A stretch of 64,000 nucleotides of DNA from a virus. The notes beneath the pieces were generated by a model, which was not told the DNA's origin, did not search any database, and saw only the letters and a program-made list of their open reading frames with translations. This document shows positions 28,815 to 38,963 of this stretch, in pieces. Within the stretch, counting starts at the first letter, position 1, and the number at the start of each line of letters is the position of its first letter. A program made the position numbers and the translations under genes. The stretch lies in IMG/VR virus record IMGVR_UViG_3300022074_000005; one strand, given 5' to 3'.

Positions 28815-29068
28815 TATATATCCGTCCTTACGATATGTTTTCTCAAAGCTCTTACCAACTCTTCTATTTTATCTATTACAGATATCATATCTTTATCTGT
28901 AATATACTTTTGTTTTTCTCTTAACTTATCATATTCTTTTAATGATATCTGCACCATAGGACTAGGTGCTGGCGCTTCGTTTTCCATACTGGCGTCAAGA
29001 GCTCTTTGTTTTTCTTCACTATCTGTCATTTTATTGCTATCGCTCCTATAAACATAAAGTTTCGCCAA
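28814..29068 (-). CDS. Hypothetical protein
   Basis: True start probably MTDSEE; coiled coil. Confidence 0.55.
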   Translation of the reverse strand: MAKLYVYRSDSNKMTDSEEKQRALDASMENEAPAPSPMVQISLKEYDKLREKQKYITDKDMISVIDKIEELVRALRKHIVRTDI

Positions 29069-29733
29069 AATACTTGTACATCTTTAAATCCAGCATTGAA
29101 CATAAATTGTTTTAGTTCATCCCAAGTATTAGGTTTCAACATATGTCTTAATGTTTTTTCTTTTGTCATTATATCATCGCAAGTAAAACTTTCTTTTTTA
29201 TGATCGTAATACATGAAAGTCATCATATCTTGTATTTGTGGATTATCACAATATACTTTTTCTGCAAACACAAATGCTCCACCTGGTTGTAGTTGATCGT
29301 ACACTTTTTTAATTACATCTTCTCTATCTCTCTTTGGCATAAACTGCAAAGTAAAAATAGATGTTGCGTATGATAATTTTTTTCTATAATCAAATTCATG
29401 ATATCTAATATCTGCATGTAAAAACTTAGCATCAATATCATGATTGTTTTTAATTGTTTTTGTTCTTTCTCTTAAATCTTTTTGAAATCCCTCTGCATAT
29501 TCAACACCAACATAATGAGCAGATGGTGCTATATCTTTATTTGCTTTTATTATTCTATCAGTAAGTTTACCTGTTGAACATCCTATATCTAAAACATAAG
29601 TGCCGTCTTCTACAAAGTATCTAGAAAAAGATACAACGTCTCTTAACATATCTTGATAACCACGAATAGACTTATCTATGTGAAGATCAAAACCTTCGTC
29701 TCTATGTGCAAATGTAAAATCATTATTCATCAT
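29026..29733 (-). CDS. cmoA: CmoA-like carboxy-S-adenosylmethionine synthase
   Basis: F..HI.KSIRGY, LDIGCSTG, DIR, FTLQF, L.PGGAFVFAEK, AGF...FWRNF.F, collinear with E. coli CmoA as recalled. Confidence 0.85.
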   Translation of the reverse strand: MMNNDFTFAHRDEGFDLHIDKSIRGYQDMLRDVVSFSRYFVEDGTYVLDIGCSTGKLTDRIIKANKDIAPSAHYVGVEYAEGFQKDLRERTKTIKNNHDIDAKFLHADIRYHEFDYRKKLSYATSIFTLQFMPKRDREDVIKKVYDQLQPGGAFVFAEKVYCDNPQIQDMMTFMYYDHKKESFTCDDIMTKEKTLRHMLKPNTWDELKQFMFNAGFKDVQVFWRNFMFIGAIAIK

Positions 29734-30866
29734 ATATTCCTTATTACTTTTTCATACATTGAAGTTGCTAGTGCCTTCATCATAATACTAGGTACCATTC
29801 TACCACAACGTTCAGATTTTTGAGCCCACTTGCCAGTAAGTTTAAAATCATCTGGCAACGAAGTAACTCTTTTTAATTCACCAAGTGTAAACTTTCTATC
29901 GTCATTCCAATGACACACACCAGCAGTTTTTTCTGTAGCACCCATCGCTGTAATAGTAGGACTAGGGTGAAACTCCGAAGCAATCTTTAAATTAAAGTGC
30001 CATCCTTTTGGATGATAATCAGTACCAGTGATAACTTTCTTTGGGTTTCTTGGCATCAAAACACATGTTTGTTTATAGTATGCTGTTTCTTTCCATTTTG
30101 TAGTTAACATATCAACTTCTTCTTTGTCATACTCTAAACCATCAAAGGCACCTTGTAAAGTAGTAATAGTATTGTTTGGCTCAGGAAATAAAGATGATAA
30201 TGTCATAAAGTTTAAACCAACCTTATCCATTATATCATCACGTACTGCCATAAAAAAAACTCTACGTCTTCTTTGTGGAACACCAAACTTAGAACAATCA
30301 TGTACTTTTGCAACTACTTGATATCCAATGTCTTCAAATGTATTTTGAATTTTATTAAAATATTGTTTTGCTTCTCCTACTGTTAGACCTTCAACATTTT
30401 CTGCAATGATAGTCTTTGGTCTAATAACTTCAGCAACTCGTAAAAACTCAAAAAATAAATCTTCAATATTAGTAACTATCTTTCCGTCTGAATAAGATTT
30501 AGTTTTACCAAAGCCATCACTATGTACAGTTCCCTCTCTTGCAAGAGTACCACACATACTAAATGCTGAACAAGGTGGACTACCATCTAGTAGTTCTAAT
30601 TCACCTTCTTTTAATTTTGTTAAATCTAAAAAGTCTTTACCTGTAAGTTCTTTTATGTCACCATCCATGATTGGTGTAGTTGGATAATTATCTCTATAAG
30701 TATTTCTTGCCTCTTCAACAAATTCATTGATTGCAAGTATCTTACCACCTGCAAGTCTATAACCTGTAGATGAACCACCACCACCAGCAAAAGTAGATAT
30801 AACTCTAAACTTGTTTAGTGCCTCTCCAGCGTGTACATCTTTCATTAAGTAAGGTTGATATTTCAT
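29730..30866 (-). CDS. DNA cytosine-C5 methyltransferase-fold enzyme, predicted carboxymethyltransferase
   Basis: Motif I FAGGGG, IV GSPPC, VI ENV, VIII QRRRR; motif X reads GRMVP instead of GN(A/S)VP. Confidence 0.9.
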   Translation of the reverse strand: MKYQPYLMKDVHAGEALNKFRVISTFAGGGGSSTGYRLAGGKILAINEFVEEARNTYRDNYPTTPIMDGDIKELTGKDFLDLTKLKEGELELLDGSPPCSAFSMCGTLAREGTVHSDGFGKTKSYSDGKIVTNIEDLFFEFLRVAEVIRPKTIIAENVEGLTVGEAKQYFNKIQNTFEDIGYQVVAKVHDCSKFGVPQRRRRVFFMAVRDDIMDKVGLNFMTLSSLFPEPNNTITTLQGAFDGLEYDKEEVDMLTTKWKETAYYKQTCVLMPRNPKKVITGTDYHPKGWHFNLKIASEFHPSPTITAMGATEKTAGVCHWNDDRKFTLGELKRVTSLPDDFKLTGKWAQKSERCGRMVPSIMMKALATSMYEKVIRNI

Positions 30867-31675
30867 AACATAAACTGATTTAGTGTTGCACCTGTTGGAT
30901 TAGACTTTGGCCAATCTCTAACTAAATCCATAACTCTAGTTCTACCTTTGTAATTAATTTCATTATTATTTAGCAGTCTTTCAAATAAAACATTTATTTT
31001 TGAATCTAATTGTAAGTTTAAATGTTTCTTAACGTCTTTGTCAAGATTAAAAGCAGTTCTTACGTGATGTTTTTGATAAGGTTGATTTAACTGATACCAA
31101 TCCATACTATAAAAATATTCTTTCACATTCATTCTTAGATATGGTGTAATAAACTTTTTATTAAACATATCTGAAACTTTTTTATGCATAATATATCCAG
31201 CTGTGTTTTCTGGTAAGAAATAGTTATCTCTAAACTCATCAAACTTTTCTTTTGTATGTTTATAATGGATATTTGCTTTTTTACTTACTCCATAATAACC
31301 ATCTGCAGCCCAACCAGAAATTACATAAGTTTGTGTAATTTTAGGATACACATATAGAAAAGGATAAACACATTCATAATGGGTTTTCTTTTTACATCCT
31401 AAATTTACAAGTTTGTAAAAGTCCTCTTCTAACTTGCTAGTATCTATTACAGTTCCTATAAAACTCCAATTGTGATTCTTTGCAATCTCTTGAGCTTTAT
31501 TATAATCATATGAGGGTTCATTGTCAAGACAAAAAGAGTATGCAGTTATCTTTTTTCCTAATCTTTCAGCTGCTAATGCAACTGATATACTATCTACCCC
31601 ACCAGATAATAGCACTGCTACATTGTCATCTGGTACAGTTTGTTTTATGTTTTCAACTAATAGTTTATCTATCAT
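30863..31675 (-). CDS. Asparagine-synthetase-like ATP pyrophosphatase (amide ligase), no glutaminase domain
   Basis: PP-loop LLSGGVDS, ISGWAADGYYG, TPYL. Confidence 0.8.
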   Translation of the reverse strand: MIDKLLVENIKQTVPDDNVAVLLSGGVDSISVALAAERLGKKITAYSFCLDNEPSYDYNKAQEIAKNHNWSFIGTVIDTSKLEEDFYKLVNLGCKKKTHYECVYPFLYVYPKITQTYVISGWAADGYYGVSKKANIHYKHTKEKFDEFRDNYFLPENTAGYIMHKKVSDMFNKKFITPYLRMNVKEYFYSMDWYQLNQPYQKHHVRTAFNLDKDVKKHLNLQLDSKINVLFERLLNNNEINYKGRTRVMDLVRDWPKSNPTGATLNQFML

Positions 31676-34152
31676 GCAAAAAAACTCTCTAACGTTCCTT
31701 GAGTTCCATAACTACGATCTACATTCCATTTGATTTTTTCTATGATATAGTTTAATGGTTCTACAAAAGACTTTTCAAATTGTAAATCATAATCTACTGC
31801 AAAACTAATTTCTTTTGGTAATTTTGTTATAAAAGAAATACTAGATGATTGATATATATTTGGAAGTTTCATATGTAAAAATTTAATCTTATCACCCTCT
31901 TGTATCAATGGATACTTGTAACCAAGTTTATTTTTTTTAATAAGATGATTATAAAGTATTGCACCTTTAACATGTATTGGTGCTCCTTTTTTAAATAGAT
32001 TGTGTGATTCAGTCCATTTACTTAAACCATTTACTCCTCTAGGATACGCCACATCTTCAGGCGCTAGTGTTAGAAATTTTTTTCTAAAATTTTGAATAAA
32101 AGTATTCAATTCTTTTTCATCACCATCCATAATAATACGTAATGCTTGTTTTATATTTTCTCTACATGGTGCAGGTGTTGAAGACTTAACTGCTTCTATT
32201 CCCATAATTTTTAATTTAGGTTCTTTGTAACGAACACCTTCAACATCATGAGCATTTAAAATATATCTTTTCTTTGCTGTCCATATACCTTTGTCTGCGA
32301 TTACTTCTCTTTTCATTTGCATTTTTTGTTCAAATGCTTTTGTATAATCAGCAAGTTCTTTATATACTTTATTAATAAATGGTTCTACTTTTTCTTTTGC
32401 AATAGTATCAAGAAAGTCAACTGGGTTCTTTGGTTTAAACTTTTCAACCAGTTCATCAAATCTAATATAAACTGAATCTGTATCAGACGCAATAACATAA
32501 TCAACATCTTTTGTTTTTAGTAATTCATTCATATACTCATTTAATTTTTCTTCTATCCAACGAATAGATAACTGACCAGAAGTGGTAATCGCTTCTGCAA
32601 TAGGAAGATTATAATATCTAAACCAATTATTACCAATCGCACCATAAGCTGAGTTAAGTGAAATCTTTCTTGCCATTTGAATATTATCAAATTTAGATAT
32701 CATTTTTAGTAGTTTTGGATTTTTAGTTTTTTCATATTCTTGTTTTGCATCTAACATAGCTCTTTTGTATTTTACTCTGTCCTCATACATTGTCTGCATC
32801 ATTTCAGGTAAGAAACCTTTTTTGTCAGTTCTAAACAAAGCACCATTTGGTGTCATAGTAGTATCTTTTAAAATAGACGTATCAACTTTTTTAGATAGCA
32901 ACTTATCTACGTTCATGTTAGGTACTGTTTTATCACTCTTTAATGTTTCTGGTGATATATTATATTGCATAATTAAATGTGGATATAATGAGTTTAAGTC
33001 AAACGATACAACCCATTTGTGTTCACCTACCTGTGGGTCTTTAACATATGCACCTTCATACTTGTCAGATTTTTCTTTATTTGTTTTTTGTGGTATAACA
33101 ATTTTTTTATCCATTAAGTAATTGTGAATAAGAACATCCCAATAACGAACACTACCAAGAACATCTACATAATTAACTTTCGCTTCATATGCCATAGTTA
33201 AACATAGTTCAATTAGTTTCATCTTATCTTCTAGTTGGTCAACTATCTCAACATCTTTAATATTATAATCAATAAAAGATTGAAAGTCATTTGTGTACCA
33301 ATCTCTAAATGTATCATGTGGATTTTCATTTTTTTTAATTCCAAGTTCTACATTAGCAATATGATCTAGTTTGTAACTCTCTTGATTAGTATATGTAAAT
33401 TTTCTATACAAATCATAATAGTCAAGAGCAGCCACACCTTGAATATCATAAACTTGATATTGTCTACCCATTTGATAAATTGTTTTAGATAATACTGAAC
33501 GCCAAGGTGATAAATCTTTTAAAGTGTCCTCGTTCATTATTTTTTTAATACGATTACACAAATAAGGAATATCAAAAAATTCTGTATTCCAACCTGTAAT
33601 TACATCTGGTTGATTTAATTTCCAAAACTTTATAAACTCTGTAAGTAATTCGTATTCATTATCACACTCAATATAAACAACGTCTTTTCTTTCTGTTTTA
33701 AATTTACCTACACCCCATACAAATATCTGTTTGTTTTGTTGATTTTTAATTGTAATAGATAATAATTCTTCAGAAGCTTCTTGAGGATTTGGGAAACCAT
33801 TTTCACAAGCAACTTCTATATCAATTGTAATAATTAATACTTCATCCATATTCCATTCAAGATTAGGATATTGTTCATACAAATAACTAAATTGAAAGTT
33901 GGTATTACCATATACTAGATGAGGTTGATCTTCGTATTGTTGTACCCAGTTCTTTGCTTCTTTGATTGTTTCATGTTTAATAGGCATAACATATTTGCCT
34001 TGTAAAGTTTTATATTTTGTTTCTCTCATAACAGGACAAAACATAGTTGGCGAATATTTAACCCTACGATTAATACGTTCACCATTTACAATCTCTCTCA
34101 ATAAAAGATTGTTACCCCATTGTATAATATTTGTATAAAATCTACTCATCAA
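31672..34152 (-). CDS. gp43: DNA polymerase family B (T4 gp43)
   Basis: DIEV, GWN..FFD, YNIKD, SFDLNSLYP, KISLNSAYG, SDTDS, KKRY. Confidence 0.98.
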   Translation of the reverse strand: MMSRFYTNIIQWGNNLLLREIVNGERINRRVKYSPTMFCPVMRETKYKTLQGKYVMPIKHETIKEAKNWVQQYEDQPHLVYGNTNFQFSYLYEQYPNLEWNMDEVLIITIDIEVACENGFPNPQEASEELLSITIKNQQNKQIFVWGVGKFKTERKDVVYIECDNEYELLTEFIKFWKLNQPDVITGWNTEFFDIPYLCNRIKKIMNEDTLKDLSPWRSVLSKTIYQMGRQYQVYDIQGVAALDYYDLYRKFTYTNQESYKLDHIANVELGIKKNENPHDTFRDWYTNDFQSFIDYNIKDVEIVDQLEDKMKLIELCLTMAYEAKVNYVDVLGSVRYWDVLIHNYLMDKKIVIPQKTNKEKSDKYEGAYVKDPQVGEHKWVVSFDLNSLYPHLIMQYNISPETLKSDKTVPNMNVDKLLSKKVDTSILKDTTMTPNGALFRTDKKGFLPEMMQTMYEDRVKYKRAMLDAKQEYEKTKNPKLLKMISKFDNIQMARKISLNSAYGAIGNNWFRYYNLPIAEAITTSGQLSIRWIEEKLNEYMNELLKTKDVDYVIASDTDSVYIRFDELVEKFKPKNPVDFLDTIAKEKVEPFINKVYKELADYTKAFEQKMQMKREVIADKGIWTAKKRYILNAHDVEGVRYKEPKLKIMGIEAVKSSTPAPCRENIKQALRIIMDGDEKELNTFIQNFRKKFLTLAPEDVAYPRGVNGLSKWTESHNLFKKGAPIHVKGAILYNHLIKKNKLGYKYPLIQEGDKIKFLHMKLPNIYQSSSISFITKLPKEISFAVDYDLQFEKSFVEPLNYIIEKIKWNVDRSYGTQGTLESFFA

Positions 34153-34523: not shown

Positions 34524-35708
34524 TTATTCAAAATAATTTTCTAGTTTACCTGTTCTACTTAAATCTACTGAACAACAATGAGCACCACCAGACCATAAAA
34601 AGTTCCAACGATTAACCCAAGGTATCATTTCAATGTTATATTTTTTTAATTTATCAGCTAAGTTCTTATCATAACCAGAAGTGATAATAGTATTCTCATC
34701 TAAAGATAATACGTTACAATCAAATCTTGTCTCTTGAGCTATACCTAATAACTCTGGCATAGGATAGTTTTTTACACCTCTCTCTTCGCACAATGCTTTT
34801 ATAGTTTTACCATCATATTCTGCTGATGGGTCCATTATAATGATTTCCCAATTATTGTCAACCATTATTTTTGGTACGTATTCTTTTTTCCATGTTAATA
34901 CTAACCCTGGTCTTAATATTGCTATCTTACCATCTACATGTCCGTAAGCTTGCATCTGAACAAATTTGTGTTTAGGAAACTCCCTTTTGTACCATTCTAA
35001 CCCATTGTTAGTAATACATATTTGTGAATGTTCTTTTATACCTAATCTATCTTGAGGGTTTGCAAAAGTATGAAATATATGTTTTCCACATTTATAGAAA
35101 GCAGCTGTATCACCTATGATATTATTTTGATTATCATATGATTCTATCTGTTCATTGCAATATCTGTTTACTTCATCTATATCTGTTGTGACTTGTTGTG
35201 GTTTACTTTCATACATCATTGGTGGCATTGCAATGTATCTAGCACCATTCTTAAATTCATCTAACATTACTTTTTGATGATTTAAGTTTTCTAAACCTCT
35301 TTCTTTTTTAGCTGTGTAAACTTCGAATATGGTATTACCAATCTTTCCTATTGTATCTCTACATTGCATCGGGTGACTTAAACCATCTTCAATGTTAGGA
35401 ATAACATCTGGTCTTACAACTTCAGCACCATACTGTTGACACAACTTGGCAAGTAAATTTAAATCTTCATTTGTTTCATCATGTATTTTTTTTAAAGTAT
35501 CTTTGTATAATGGTAATTGTTCTTTGATATCTCTTTTATGATTAGTGTAATCTAGAGTATCATCAGCATATTCCACGCTTCTATTTCGTACTGTATTGTC
35601 GTACTCCATGAGAATCTTATTCTCAAATTCATCTTCTACTTTACTGACATCATAGGTTTTACCTATTAGGACTTTTTTAAGAGGTGTCCACTCATCATAA
35701 ACTGTCAT
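34524..35708 (-). CDS. Amidinotransferase (glycine/inosamine-phosphate amidinotransferase family)
   Basis: YDEWTPLKKV.IG, V.RP, CRD, HVDG, CNVLSLDE, GGAHC. Confidence 0.85.
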   Translation of the reverse strand: MTVYDEWTPLKKVLIGKTYDVSKVEDEFENKILMEYDNTVRNRSVEYADDTLDYTNHKRDIKEQLPLYKDTLKKIHDETNEDLNLLAKLCQQYGAEVVRPDVIPNIEDGLSHPMQCRDTIGKIGNTIFEVYTAKKERGLENLNHQKVMLDEFKNGARYIAMPPMMYESKPQQVTTDIDEVNRYCNEQIESYDNQNNIIGDTAAFYKCGKHIFHTFANPQDRLGIKEHSQICITNNGLEWYKREFPKHKFVQMQAYGHVDGKIAILRPGLVLTWKKEYVPKIMVDNNWEIIIMDPSAEYDGKTIKALCEERGVKNYPMPELLGIAQETRFDCNVLSLDENTIITSGYDKNLADKLKKYNIEMIPWVNRWNFLWSGGAHCCSVDLSRTGKLENYFE

Positions 35709-36445
35709 TTTATAAAAAACATATCACAACCAAAGTTATCTCTCTGTCGAGATAAACAAGCGTTGTATCCTTTCGATTTAAATTCATCTATAACTTCAAT
35801 CATATCAAACATTGCCTCATGAGGATTAGGACAATATAAATGAGCTCTAACATGAAAGCATTTAATTGGTATGTTGTTATCTAATATTTCTCGACAAGTA
35901 TCATACCATACTCCCCAAGTATCTGCTTTAATCAAATCAGGCATACCATGTTTTTTAATCATGGTACTTAAATTTTCTGTTTTAACCATAACATGTGATT
36001 GATTTTTATCTTCATAGATAGAGTCTATTGATTTAATAAAATGTGGTTTTAAATTATATTCTCTACCATACGGATTATCACCATATCCAAGTTCAGTTTC
36101 TAATAATGTTGGATTATAGTAAAATGGCATTTCACCATTTTCTTTTGCATAACAAACATTATGAAATTTCATTTGTGGTTTAAATGGCCAACTATCTTCT
36201 TTCCACCATTGTGCTGATTCAGGTGAACCATCAAAACAATGAAATTTTAAATTAGGATTATCTGTTGCCATAGCTATTTCCATGTCAACATCTTTTGATA
36301 CACCAATGCTATAGACTGTTGAATATTCTTTTATTTTATCAATAGGGAAACGATATCGACCATACTCTTCATATGGTGTATAGTCTAAATGTATTTCCTC
36401 TATTTTTCTTAATTGTGATTTAAGTTCCGATAGGTTTTGCATCAT
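35705..36445 (-). CDS. FkbM-like SAM methyltransferase
   Basis: VYSIGVSKDVDME...HCFDG.P...PDLIKAD. Confidence 0.6.
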   Translation of the reverse strand: MMQNLSELKSQLRKIEEIHLDYTPYEEYGRYRFPIDKIKEYSTVYSIGVSKDVDMEIAMATDNPNLKFHCFDGSPESAQWWKEDSWPFKPQMKFHNVCYAKENGEMPFYYNPTLLETELGYGDNPYGREYNLKPHFIKSIDSIYEDKNQSHVMVKTENLSTMIKKHGMPDLIKADTWGVWYDTCREILDNNIPIKCFHVRAHLYCPNPHEAMFDMIEVIDEFKSKGYNACLSRQRDNFGCDMFFIK

Positions 36446-37243: not shown

Positions 37244-38341
37244 TTAGTTATATACTATCTTACTATTGATAATATTTTTTATATATTCGCCACCATCTAA
37301 ATTAATATCTGGTATGTCTTGTTCTTTTATTTTATTTGTTTGTCTGATACCTTCAACAAGCATGTCGGCATCTAAATCATTATTTGTTAACCAATGGCAA
37401 CCACCAGCTTTAGAATATGCATCTGCTCTAAAAGGTTCCTCAGTTGCAATGATATTATTATTAACATCATACATTTCAGACGAAGTAGCTTCATTTGGTG
37501 TAACTAATGCTGGTGTTTTAGTTATATTTAAATCTGTAAAAGTCATATATCCTAACATTGTAAAAGCCATTTTATGTATTGATAGATAATCTCTAAATTC
37601 ATTTACACTAGGTCTTTCAATTAAATGTATGCCTCTATTCTCTGCCATAATTCTAATATCTTTTGGTGTCTTTGGTCCAACTATAAATGACATCTTTTGC
37701 CACATCATCTTTTCTTTAACTTGTAAAAACAATCTTTGATAATGATGAGTTAGTTCATACCAATCACCACCTGATACTAATATGCCATCTCTTTTATCTA
37801 TACTAGGTTTTTTATATGGAAGTGTAACATAACCTGTATTATGTATTTCACAATCTATCATTGGTGTTTCATGTAATTGTAAAGTTGCATCTATAAAATT
37901 ATCGTCACCTGCAAAAAATATGCCATCGTAAAATTCATTAAGTCTTTCAGTATAGAAATACATATCCTCTGGTTTAATCCAAGGTATGTCTCTATCTAAA
38001 GAATATATTCTTTTACCTGCTTCTTTTGCATGTTCTAATATATCAAGTATACCGCCATGTTCCCATAGTTCACCTCTTTGCTCTGTCCAAAAGGGGTCCC
38101 AACCATATCGACCAAAAGGATAACCCTCTGTAATAACTACATCTGGGTCATACTCTCTATAGTCTTGATATAGATCGTTATACTCTTTATCTTTACCAAA
38201 GAAGTCTATTGATTTTGATTTACCTGTAAAAGGTCGAGTTATGATAACTCTATCATTTAAATATTCGCCTAATGCGTTTGCTCTACTGATATGTCCATGA
38301 CCAGTATTACTTTGTACTAATATCAAACTCTTCATAACCAA
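37244..38341 (-). CDS. Glycosyltransferase (GT-B, GT28 C-terminal-like)
   Basis: GHGHISRA, EGYPFGR, ILVSGG, LGYMT, E..RA, LDGG. Confidence 0.75.
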   Translation of the reverse strand: MVMKSLILVQSNTGHGHISRANALGEYLNDRVIITRPFTGKSKSIDFFGKDKEYNDLYQDYREYDPDVVITEGYPFGRYGWDPFWTEQRGELWEHGGILDILEHAKEAGKRIYSLDRDIPWIKPEDMYFYTERLNEFYDGIFFAGDDNFIDATLQLHETPMIDCEIHNTGYVTLPYKKPSIDKRDGILVSGGDWYELTHHYQRLFLQVKEKMMWQKMSFIVGPKTPKDIRIMAENRGIHLIERPSVNEFRDYLSIHKMAFTMLGYMTFTDLNITKTPALVTPNEATSSEMYDVNNNIIATEEPFRADAYSKAGGCHWLTNNDLDADMLVEGIRQTNKIKEQDIPDINLDGGEYIKNIINSKIVYN

Positions 38342-38963
38342 ACTTTTTATAGACAGGCAACTTATGAATATCTGGGTAGTAATCCCAATCTTTTTTCATA
38401 GGTTTTACGTCTTTCACTTTCTCAAAATTTTTTAATCCTATTTTTGCTTTGTGTGGTGTCATATAATAATGATAACCAAACACATCTATATGTTGTTCAT
38501 TCCATGGCACACTTGATCTTGTTCTACCATCGTAACACATTAACCTTAATAAATCAGCATCTTCTTTATTATCTAAAAGTATCATGCCACCTCTGTCTGT
38601 ACTTAAATGTTTTCTATAAAAAAAACTTAAACACATTCTGGTGCCAGGTTCGTAACCATTCTTTTTCCAATACACAGCTGCATCAATAGTTTCTTTTGTT
38701 AGATAATAATACTCATGCCAATGCACATCACCCCATTGAAACTTCCAACCATTTTTAATTAGCATGTTTGGAACTGAAACGTATGTGTGAAATGGAACTT
38801 TGATAGCACGAACTTCTTTACCTTGCTTTTGTTTTTCTAATCTTAAGCAAAGCTCTAAAGCATTTGTGCAACAATCTGTGGCAACCGCATATGGAGCACC
38901 AAAGAATTCTGCGACTTTGTTTTCAAACTCTGTGACGACATGCCACTCGTTTTTTTGCATCAT
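38307..38963 (-). CDS. DegT/DnrJ/EryC1/StrS-family PLP aminotransferase (short form)
   Basis: FE..VA.FFG..YAVAT..CTNAL, TYVSV, IDAA, SFFYRKHL..DRGGM. Confidence 0.85.
   Translation of the reverse strand: MMQKNEWHVVTEFENKVAEFFGAPYAVATDCCTNALELCLRLEKQKQGKEVRAIKVPFHTYVSVPNMLIKNGWKFQWGDVHWHEYYYLTKETIDAAVYWKKNGYEPGTRMCLSFFYRKHLSTDRGGMILLDNKEDADLLRLMCYDGRTRSSVPWNEQHIDVFGYHYYMTPHKAKIGLKNFEKVKDVKPMKKDWDYYPDIHKLPVYKKFGYEEFDISTK

Follow-up and report, generated by a model that had tools for sequence, protein, structure and literature searches.

Which cofactor is used by a C5-cytosine methyltransferase-like enzyme that has arginine at the asparagine place of motif X? This question is raised by a gene in the window, the whole 64,000-nucleotide stretch of viral DNA analyzed here (IMG/VR virus record IMGVR_UViG_3300022074_000005). 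An earlier note on this DNA had proposed that the arginine (R356) is a natural binder of the carboxylate of Cx-SAM and that it could serve as a one-residue marker for mining similar enzymes. The interpretation appears correct, yet it was already published in December 2025, and the window supplies a further member of the family described there.

The gene occupies 29730..30866 on the minus strand and encodes a protein of 378 aa. Residues 20-371 are covered by the C5-cytosine methyltransferase domain (Pfam accession PF00145; E 1e-49), and the match to TIGR00675 (E 5.4e-40) exceeds the cut-off of that family. The catalytic motifs outside motif X, which the earlier note had described as intact, are all found on the minus strand: the cofactor-binding motif I FAGGGG (30774..30791), motif IV SPPC with the catalytic Cys99 (30570-30581) and, by translation, motif VI ENV (30393..30401) and motif VIII QRRRR, which follows the QxRxR pattern (30261..30275). 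Translation also bears out the reading of motif X as ERCGRMVP (residues 352-359, minus strand), with Arg356, the predicted Cx-SAM carboxylate binder, encoded by an AGA codon at 29799..29801. The motif begins at 29790 as previously given and ends at 29813, one base beyond the end of 29812 assigned to it before. Motif IV extends to SPPC-S (30567..30581, minus strand), in which Cys99 is followed by Ser100 (30567-30569) at the place where M.HhaI has Gln82. The methyl-pocket residues of canonical SAM-dependent enzymes, Gly-Asn in motif X and Pro-Cys-Gln in motif IV, are Gly-Arg and Pro-Cys-Ser in the window.

A PDB sequence search with this protein returned one outstanding match, 8YF3 (E 8.6e-142), followed by the HaeIII and HhaI methyltransferases at about 1e-14. 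The 8YF3 structure is that of SpCmoX from Synechococcus phage S-B43, which moves a carboxymethyl group from Cx-SAM to cytosine C5 at GpC sites in double-stranded DNA, giving 5-carboxymethylcytosine (Yang et al., Nat Commun, December 2025; PMC12783734). Cx-SAM is the sole cofactor accepted by wild-type SpCmoX, and in the crystal R350 is in direct contact with the carboxymethyl group of Cx-SAM (PMC12783734). BLASTP gives 59% identity over 375 aa between the window protein and SpCmoX (GenBank MN018232), and both BLASTP and phmmer place R356 opposite R350, the SpCmoX motif X reading ERVGRMVP. Motif IV residues S96-P97-P98-C99 lie opposite SpCmoX S95-C98. Every cofactor contact named in the SpCmoX paper (PMC12783734) is conserved: F25, E47, F48, D69 and C98 of SpCmoX correspond to the identical residues F26, E48, F49, D70 and C99, and the Phe26 of motif I is thus the counterpart of the Phe25 that stacks on adenine in SpCmoX (PMC12783734).

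We consider it very probable (roughly 90%) that the window enzyme is a CmoX ortholog, that is, a Cx-SAM-dependent DNA cytosine C5-carboxymethyltransferase. The basis provided by our analysis is homology, residue equivalence, conservation among relatives and gene context. The earlier proposal that R356 naturally binds the Cx-SAM carboxylate gains support from its alignment with R350, whose contact is seen in 8YF3. By analogy with its 59%-identical counterpart, window CmoX would be expected to behave like SpCmoX in its cofactor, in its GpC target and in the glycine ligation that follows. The variable region (residues 213-322), which is expected to read the DNA sequence, is only 44.5% identical to that of SpCmoX, so GpC specificity is not assured.

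Comparison with M.HhaI, which the earlier note had pointed to, places the arginine as anticipated. In a phmmer alignment spanning window CmoX residues 17-363, R356 falls opposite Asn304 (CGRMV against FGNSV, within KQFGNSVV of M.HhaI). The phmmer alignment of full-length window CmoX with M.MpeI (4DKJ) covers only residues 145-235, which stops short of R356, and a 77-aa C-terminal query of the PDB did not retrieve 4DKJ at E values up to 10. Published work equates Q82 and N304 of HhaI with Q136 and N374 of M.MpeI, as conserved positions of motifs IV and X respectively (PMC10666283, PMC6009647), and HhaI Gln82 and Asn304 are the two pocket positions mutated to admit larger cofactors (PMC10666283). 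By way of HhaI N304 and the literature, and not by direct alignment, R356 would correspond to M.MpeI N374. The SpCmoX variant R350N has no activity with either SAM or Cx-SAM (PMC12783734), which indicates that the arginine is needed but is no simple switch. By analogy with this published variant, an Arg-to-Asn reversion of the window enzyme would not be expected to restore methyl transfer.

The genes on either side of CmoX encode putative partners. Directly downstream, at 29026..29733 on the minus strand, lies a CmoA ortholog of 235 aa, a predicted Cx-SAM synthase with 56% identity to SpCmoA. The best NCBIfam family of this protein is TIGR00740 CmoA (E 1.1e-30), with a score of 107 bits that stays below the curated equivalog cut-off of 193, and its best PDB matches are YecO (1IM8) and E. 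coli CmoA (4GEK/4IWN), at E values of about 1e-18 to 1e-20. Upstream, at 30863..31675 on the same strand, is a CmoY ortholog of 270 aa, a predicted ATP-dependent amide ligase (Pfam accession PF00733, E 2.1e-12; 48% identity to SpCmoY). It is asparagine-synthetase-like, with an Asn_synthase domain and without a glutaminase domain, and its translation contains the PP-loop SGGVDS at residues 24-29 (31589-31606, minus strand); a PDB sequence search with window CmoY gave no matches. The CmoA of S-B43 produces Cx-SAM, the asparagine-synthetase-like CmoY of that phage couples glycine to the carboxyl so introduced, and the glycine amide is present in S-B43 virion DNA (PMC12783734).

The CmoY-CmoX-CmoA cassette is set between the gp43 family-B DNA polymerase (31672..34152, minus strand; Pfam accessions PF00136 and PF03104) and UvsX/gp41. 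CmoX stops and CmoA starts within a shared ATGA (29730-29733), and further ATGA overlaps occur between CmoY and CmoX (30863-30866) and between gp43 and CmoY (31672-31675), where the polymerase stop overlaps the CmoY start. This apparent translational coupling to the DNA polymerase suggests that modification should accompany replication.

We next consider how far the arginine and CmoA travel together. Among 78 IMG/VR loci encoding relatives with 62-99% identity to window CmoX, 76 cover the motif X position, and Arg is present in 76/76 of these. CmoA lies directly downstream in the IMG/VR relatives wherever the flank suffices, with one exception. That exception is a contig of 5382 bases (L068), which encodes an Arg-type CmoX of 64% identity and continues downstream of it for about 1.4 kb; neither CmoA nor CmoY has a match on this contig, the sole such case among loci with flank. 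On a broader scale, 146 of the best 150 cluster representatives from a library of 1.8 billion proteins cover the position in phmmer alignments, and the residue is R in 107, N in 30, L in 5, K in 1 and something else in 3. Retention of the arginine across relatives indicates that it is not a chance variant. The earlier note had suggested asking whether GRxVP methyltransferases co-occur with cmoA, and nearly all of the 76 Arg-type IMG/VR relatives do so. Its idea of a mining marker had likewise been realized in print: a search for SPPC plus R350 collected 5,615 sequences, with 4,257 CmoA sequences on their contigs (PMC12783734), and the marker is reproduced here.

The association reaches more distant phages. 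An Arg-type enzyme of 45% identity (P0017/L088) has as its neighbors a CmoA homolog and an asparagine synthase fused to glutaminase, and in Pseudomonas phage PaBG an Arg-type methyltransferase occurs together with ParB, CmoA and asparagine synthase. Within the phage collection, 48 records of Erwinia jumbo phages have a CmoA homolog, and the Erwinia records that match CmoX also number 48. The one Erwinia enzyme that we read, gp43 of phage Yoloswag (L082, 1663-3771), is Arg-type and shares its genome with CmoA. This 702-aa protein has motif IV PCF, motif X GRVCVP and an insertion of about 350 residues after motif IV; the CmoA homolog lies about 14 kb from it and is not adjacent. Met occupies the motif X position in the enzymes of Flavobacterium phage Fpv6 and Parabacteroides phage PD491P1, two phages in which a search of the phage collection detected no CmoA. 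The occurrence of Leu and Met variants in relatives without CmoA implies that loss of the asparagine is not diagnostic by itself and that only Arg is a marker.

A separate arrangement is seen in a Staphylococcus SPbeta-like phage (L091, 7947-9646), where the gene directly after cmoA encodes a C5-methyltransferase of 332 aa in which Pro-Cys-Gln is retained. This protein has no alignable Gly-Arg motif X; its C-terminus contains VVGGVIN, and the profile did not align motif X there. Possibly the enzyme uses Cx-SAM while lacking the arginine, or CmoA may serve another purpose in this phage. The arrangement thus suggests that the Arg marker may miss some Cx-SAM users.

Motif IV offers a possible second determinant of cofactor choice. 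The residue after the catalytic Cys, at the HhaI Gln82 position, is Ala or Ser in 87 Arg-type representatives and Gln in 1, and it is Gln in 21/30 Asn-type representatives, a strong association in the raw counts. A phylogenetically independent pairs test of motifs IV and X gave about 3 agreeing, 0 disagreeing and about 5 uninformative pairs (median p 0.25); since this result is non-significant, we do not claim co-evolution and treat the motif IV link as a lead. The Gln82-equivalent position is not discussed in the CmoX paper (PMC12783734). Cofactor choice may need two changes in the pocket, gain of the motif X arginine and loss of the motif IV glutamine, and a pocket of this kind would explain why SpCmoX R350N is inactive and not a methyltransferase.

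The partner genes were also compared among close relatives. In IMG/VR loci L009-L046, CmoX is 89-96% identical to that of the window, and CmoY falls into at least four clusters. The CmoY proteins of these loci have only 42-47% identity to window CmoY and 46-49% to SpCmoY, and their CmoA proteins have either 91-99% or only 55-64% identity to that of the window. The cassette is a mosaic, built by recombination around a conserved CmoX. More distant relatives have longer CmoY versions, one of them with glutaminase domains. Divergent CmoY proteins could attach different amines, giving a modification "serotype" that is shuffled by recombination. With window CmoY at 48% identity to SpCmoY and such divergent alleles in close relatives, the amine in the window phage may not be glycine. 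We put forward only tentatively, as a pair of proposals that is somewhat unlikely to hold jointly, that the amide cap varies among near-identical marine phages and that the cofactor pocket depends on two changes.

The following sequence of reactions would account for the cassette. CmoA, encoded downstream, would make Cx-SAM from SAM and prephenate. Cys99 of CmoX would attack C6 of a flipped-out cytosine, as in ordinary C5-methyltransferases, and Arg356, at the place of the motif X Asn, would pair with the cofactor carboxylate. The C5 carbanion would then attack Cx-SAM, and beta-elimination would free the enzyme, leaving 5-carboxymethylcytosine in the double-stranded phage DNA. CmoY, encoded upstream, would adenylate the new carboxyl and join an amine to it; with glycine, the amine of the studied ortholog, the product would be 5-glycylcarboxymethylcytosine. 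The modification probably serves to shield phage DNA from host nucleases.

The phage that carries this cassette has a window GC content of 31% overall and 28-36% throughout. Its DNA polymerase is closest to that of Methylophilales phage Melnitz (62%), with cyanophages at about 54%, and this affinity places the carrier, an uncultured marine T4-like phage, apart from the cyanophages, the group from which the studied CmoX comes. In Melnitz-3 (L081, 2866-5050), by DNA polymerase the nearest relative in culture, the slot after gp43 contains a Leu-type C5-methyltransferase and a Tet_JBP dioxygenase, and no CmoY-CmoX-CmoA. The same genomic slot thus seems to host alternative cytosine hypermodification cassettes. 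The Melnitz pairing corresponds to the published route of TET-associated phage GpC methyltransferases, which requires 5mC (Burke et al., PNAS 2021; PMC8256090). Across the window (1-64000), GpC has an observed/expected ratio of 1.06 and is not depleted, which speaks neither for nor against a GpC target; CpG is strongly depleted, with a ratio of 0.53. Elsewhere in the window, two ORFs of 394 and 246 aa (34524-36445) have no Pfam match at E up to 0.001, and a 218-aa ORF (38307-38963) matches DegT aminotransferases (E 1e-22).

Could the window gene instead encode an ordinary SAM-dependent 5mC methyltransferase, in which Arg356 is tolerated and leaves cofactor choice unaffected? The intact C5-methyltransferase catalytic motifs would fit such an enzyme, as would the Leu or Met found at this position in CmoA-less relatives, the Melnitz representative of which adjoins a TET dioxygenase that needs 5mC. 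We reject this possibility as very improbable, however, because SpCmoX, 59% identical and with the same arginine, accepts only Cx-SAM, because Arg shows no variation among the 76 close relatives covering this position, with CmoA as the neighboring gene, and because the motif IV Gln has been lost too. Even less credible is the proposal that the arginine binds an anionic group of some other SAM derivative made by the neighboring CmoA homolog. The sub-threshold NCBIfam equivalog score of that homolog would be in keeping with such a scheme, but SpCmoA, 56% identical to it, produces Cx-SAM (kcat 2.33 per second; PMC12783734), and the solved structures closest to the window homolog are those of genuine CmoA proteins.

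A weightier alternative, to which we give an appreciable chance well short of even, retains Cx-SAM as the cofactor and supposes that the target sequence, the final product or both differ from those of the S-B43 system. The 44.5% identity of the variable region to SpCmoX is consistent with a different site, although related TET-linked phage methyltransferases also prefer GpC (PMC8256090), a specificity that may be ancestral. A different product is suggested by the 48% identity of CmoY to SpCmoY and by the relatives described above, in which CmoX is at least 89% identical and CmoY forms at least four clusters with 42-47% identity to window CmoY. The authors of the SpCmoX study themselves call the specificities of their mined homologs unknown (PMC12783734). 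Against a different product, a CmoY with 48% identity would be grouped with SpCmoY at the threshold of about 30% that defines the similarity clusters, and members of that cluster reportedly retain the residues that bind the glycine carboxylate (PMC12783734). Identification of the window enzyme as a Cx-SAM-dependent CmoX is common to this alternative and to an S-B43-like system.

The principle of the engineered M.MpeI N374K enzyme thus already exists in nature, as the earlier note had worked out from the letters and as crystal structure and biochemistry have established (PMC12783734), and the window adds a probable further instance of CmoX, in a marine T4-like phage of low GC that lies outside the cyanophages. 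Methylation sequencing and chromatin footprinting call for natural enzymes that use only Cx-SAM and have short target sites. The diverse CmoY proteins encoded beside CmoX constitute a ready panel for new DNA amide modifications.

A comparison with known systems places the window enzyme closest to SpCmoX, with which it has in common the SPPC-S motif IV, a GRMVP motif X with Arg and the partner genes CmoA and CmoY. Unlike SpCmoX, it has a six-residue insertion ahead of motif IX. The gene order is CmoY-CmoX-CmoA in the window and CmoA-CmoY-CmoX in S-B43, and S-CRM01 has only CmoA and CmoX of the three genes. S-B43 is a cyanophage, whereas the carrier of the window cassette is a marine T4-like phage of 31% GC.

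The fold and catalytic motifs of M.HhaI, the canonical C5-methyltransferase (PDB 1MHT and others), are common to window CmoX, in which HhaI Asn304 is replaced by Arg356 and Gln82 by Ser100. M.MpeI N374K and M.MedI N377K are engineered carboxymethyltransferases (Wang and Kohli, 2021; PMC12015181, PMC13288465). These mutants resemble CmoX in having a cationic motif X side chain, proposed to form a salt bridge to the carboxylate, and in using Cx-SAM; they are laboratory variants that have Lys, act at CpG and remain able to methylate with SAM. The enzyme found in nature, in contrast, has Arg and probably acts at GpC, and SpCmoX refuses SAM.

Another instructive comparison is provided by the Melnitz methyltransferase, which is 37.5% identical to window CmoX and is encoded in the same place, right after gp43. 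Both enzymes would carry out the first step of a post-replicative C5-cytosine hypermodification. The Melnitz enzyme, however, has Leu in motif X and PCP in motif IV, and its partner is a Tet_JBP dioxygenase and not CmoA. The handle on the base is a hydroxymethyl group in TET-associated systems and a carboxymethyl group in CmoX systems.
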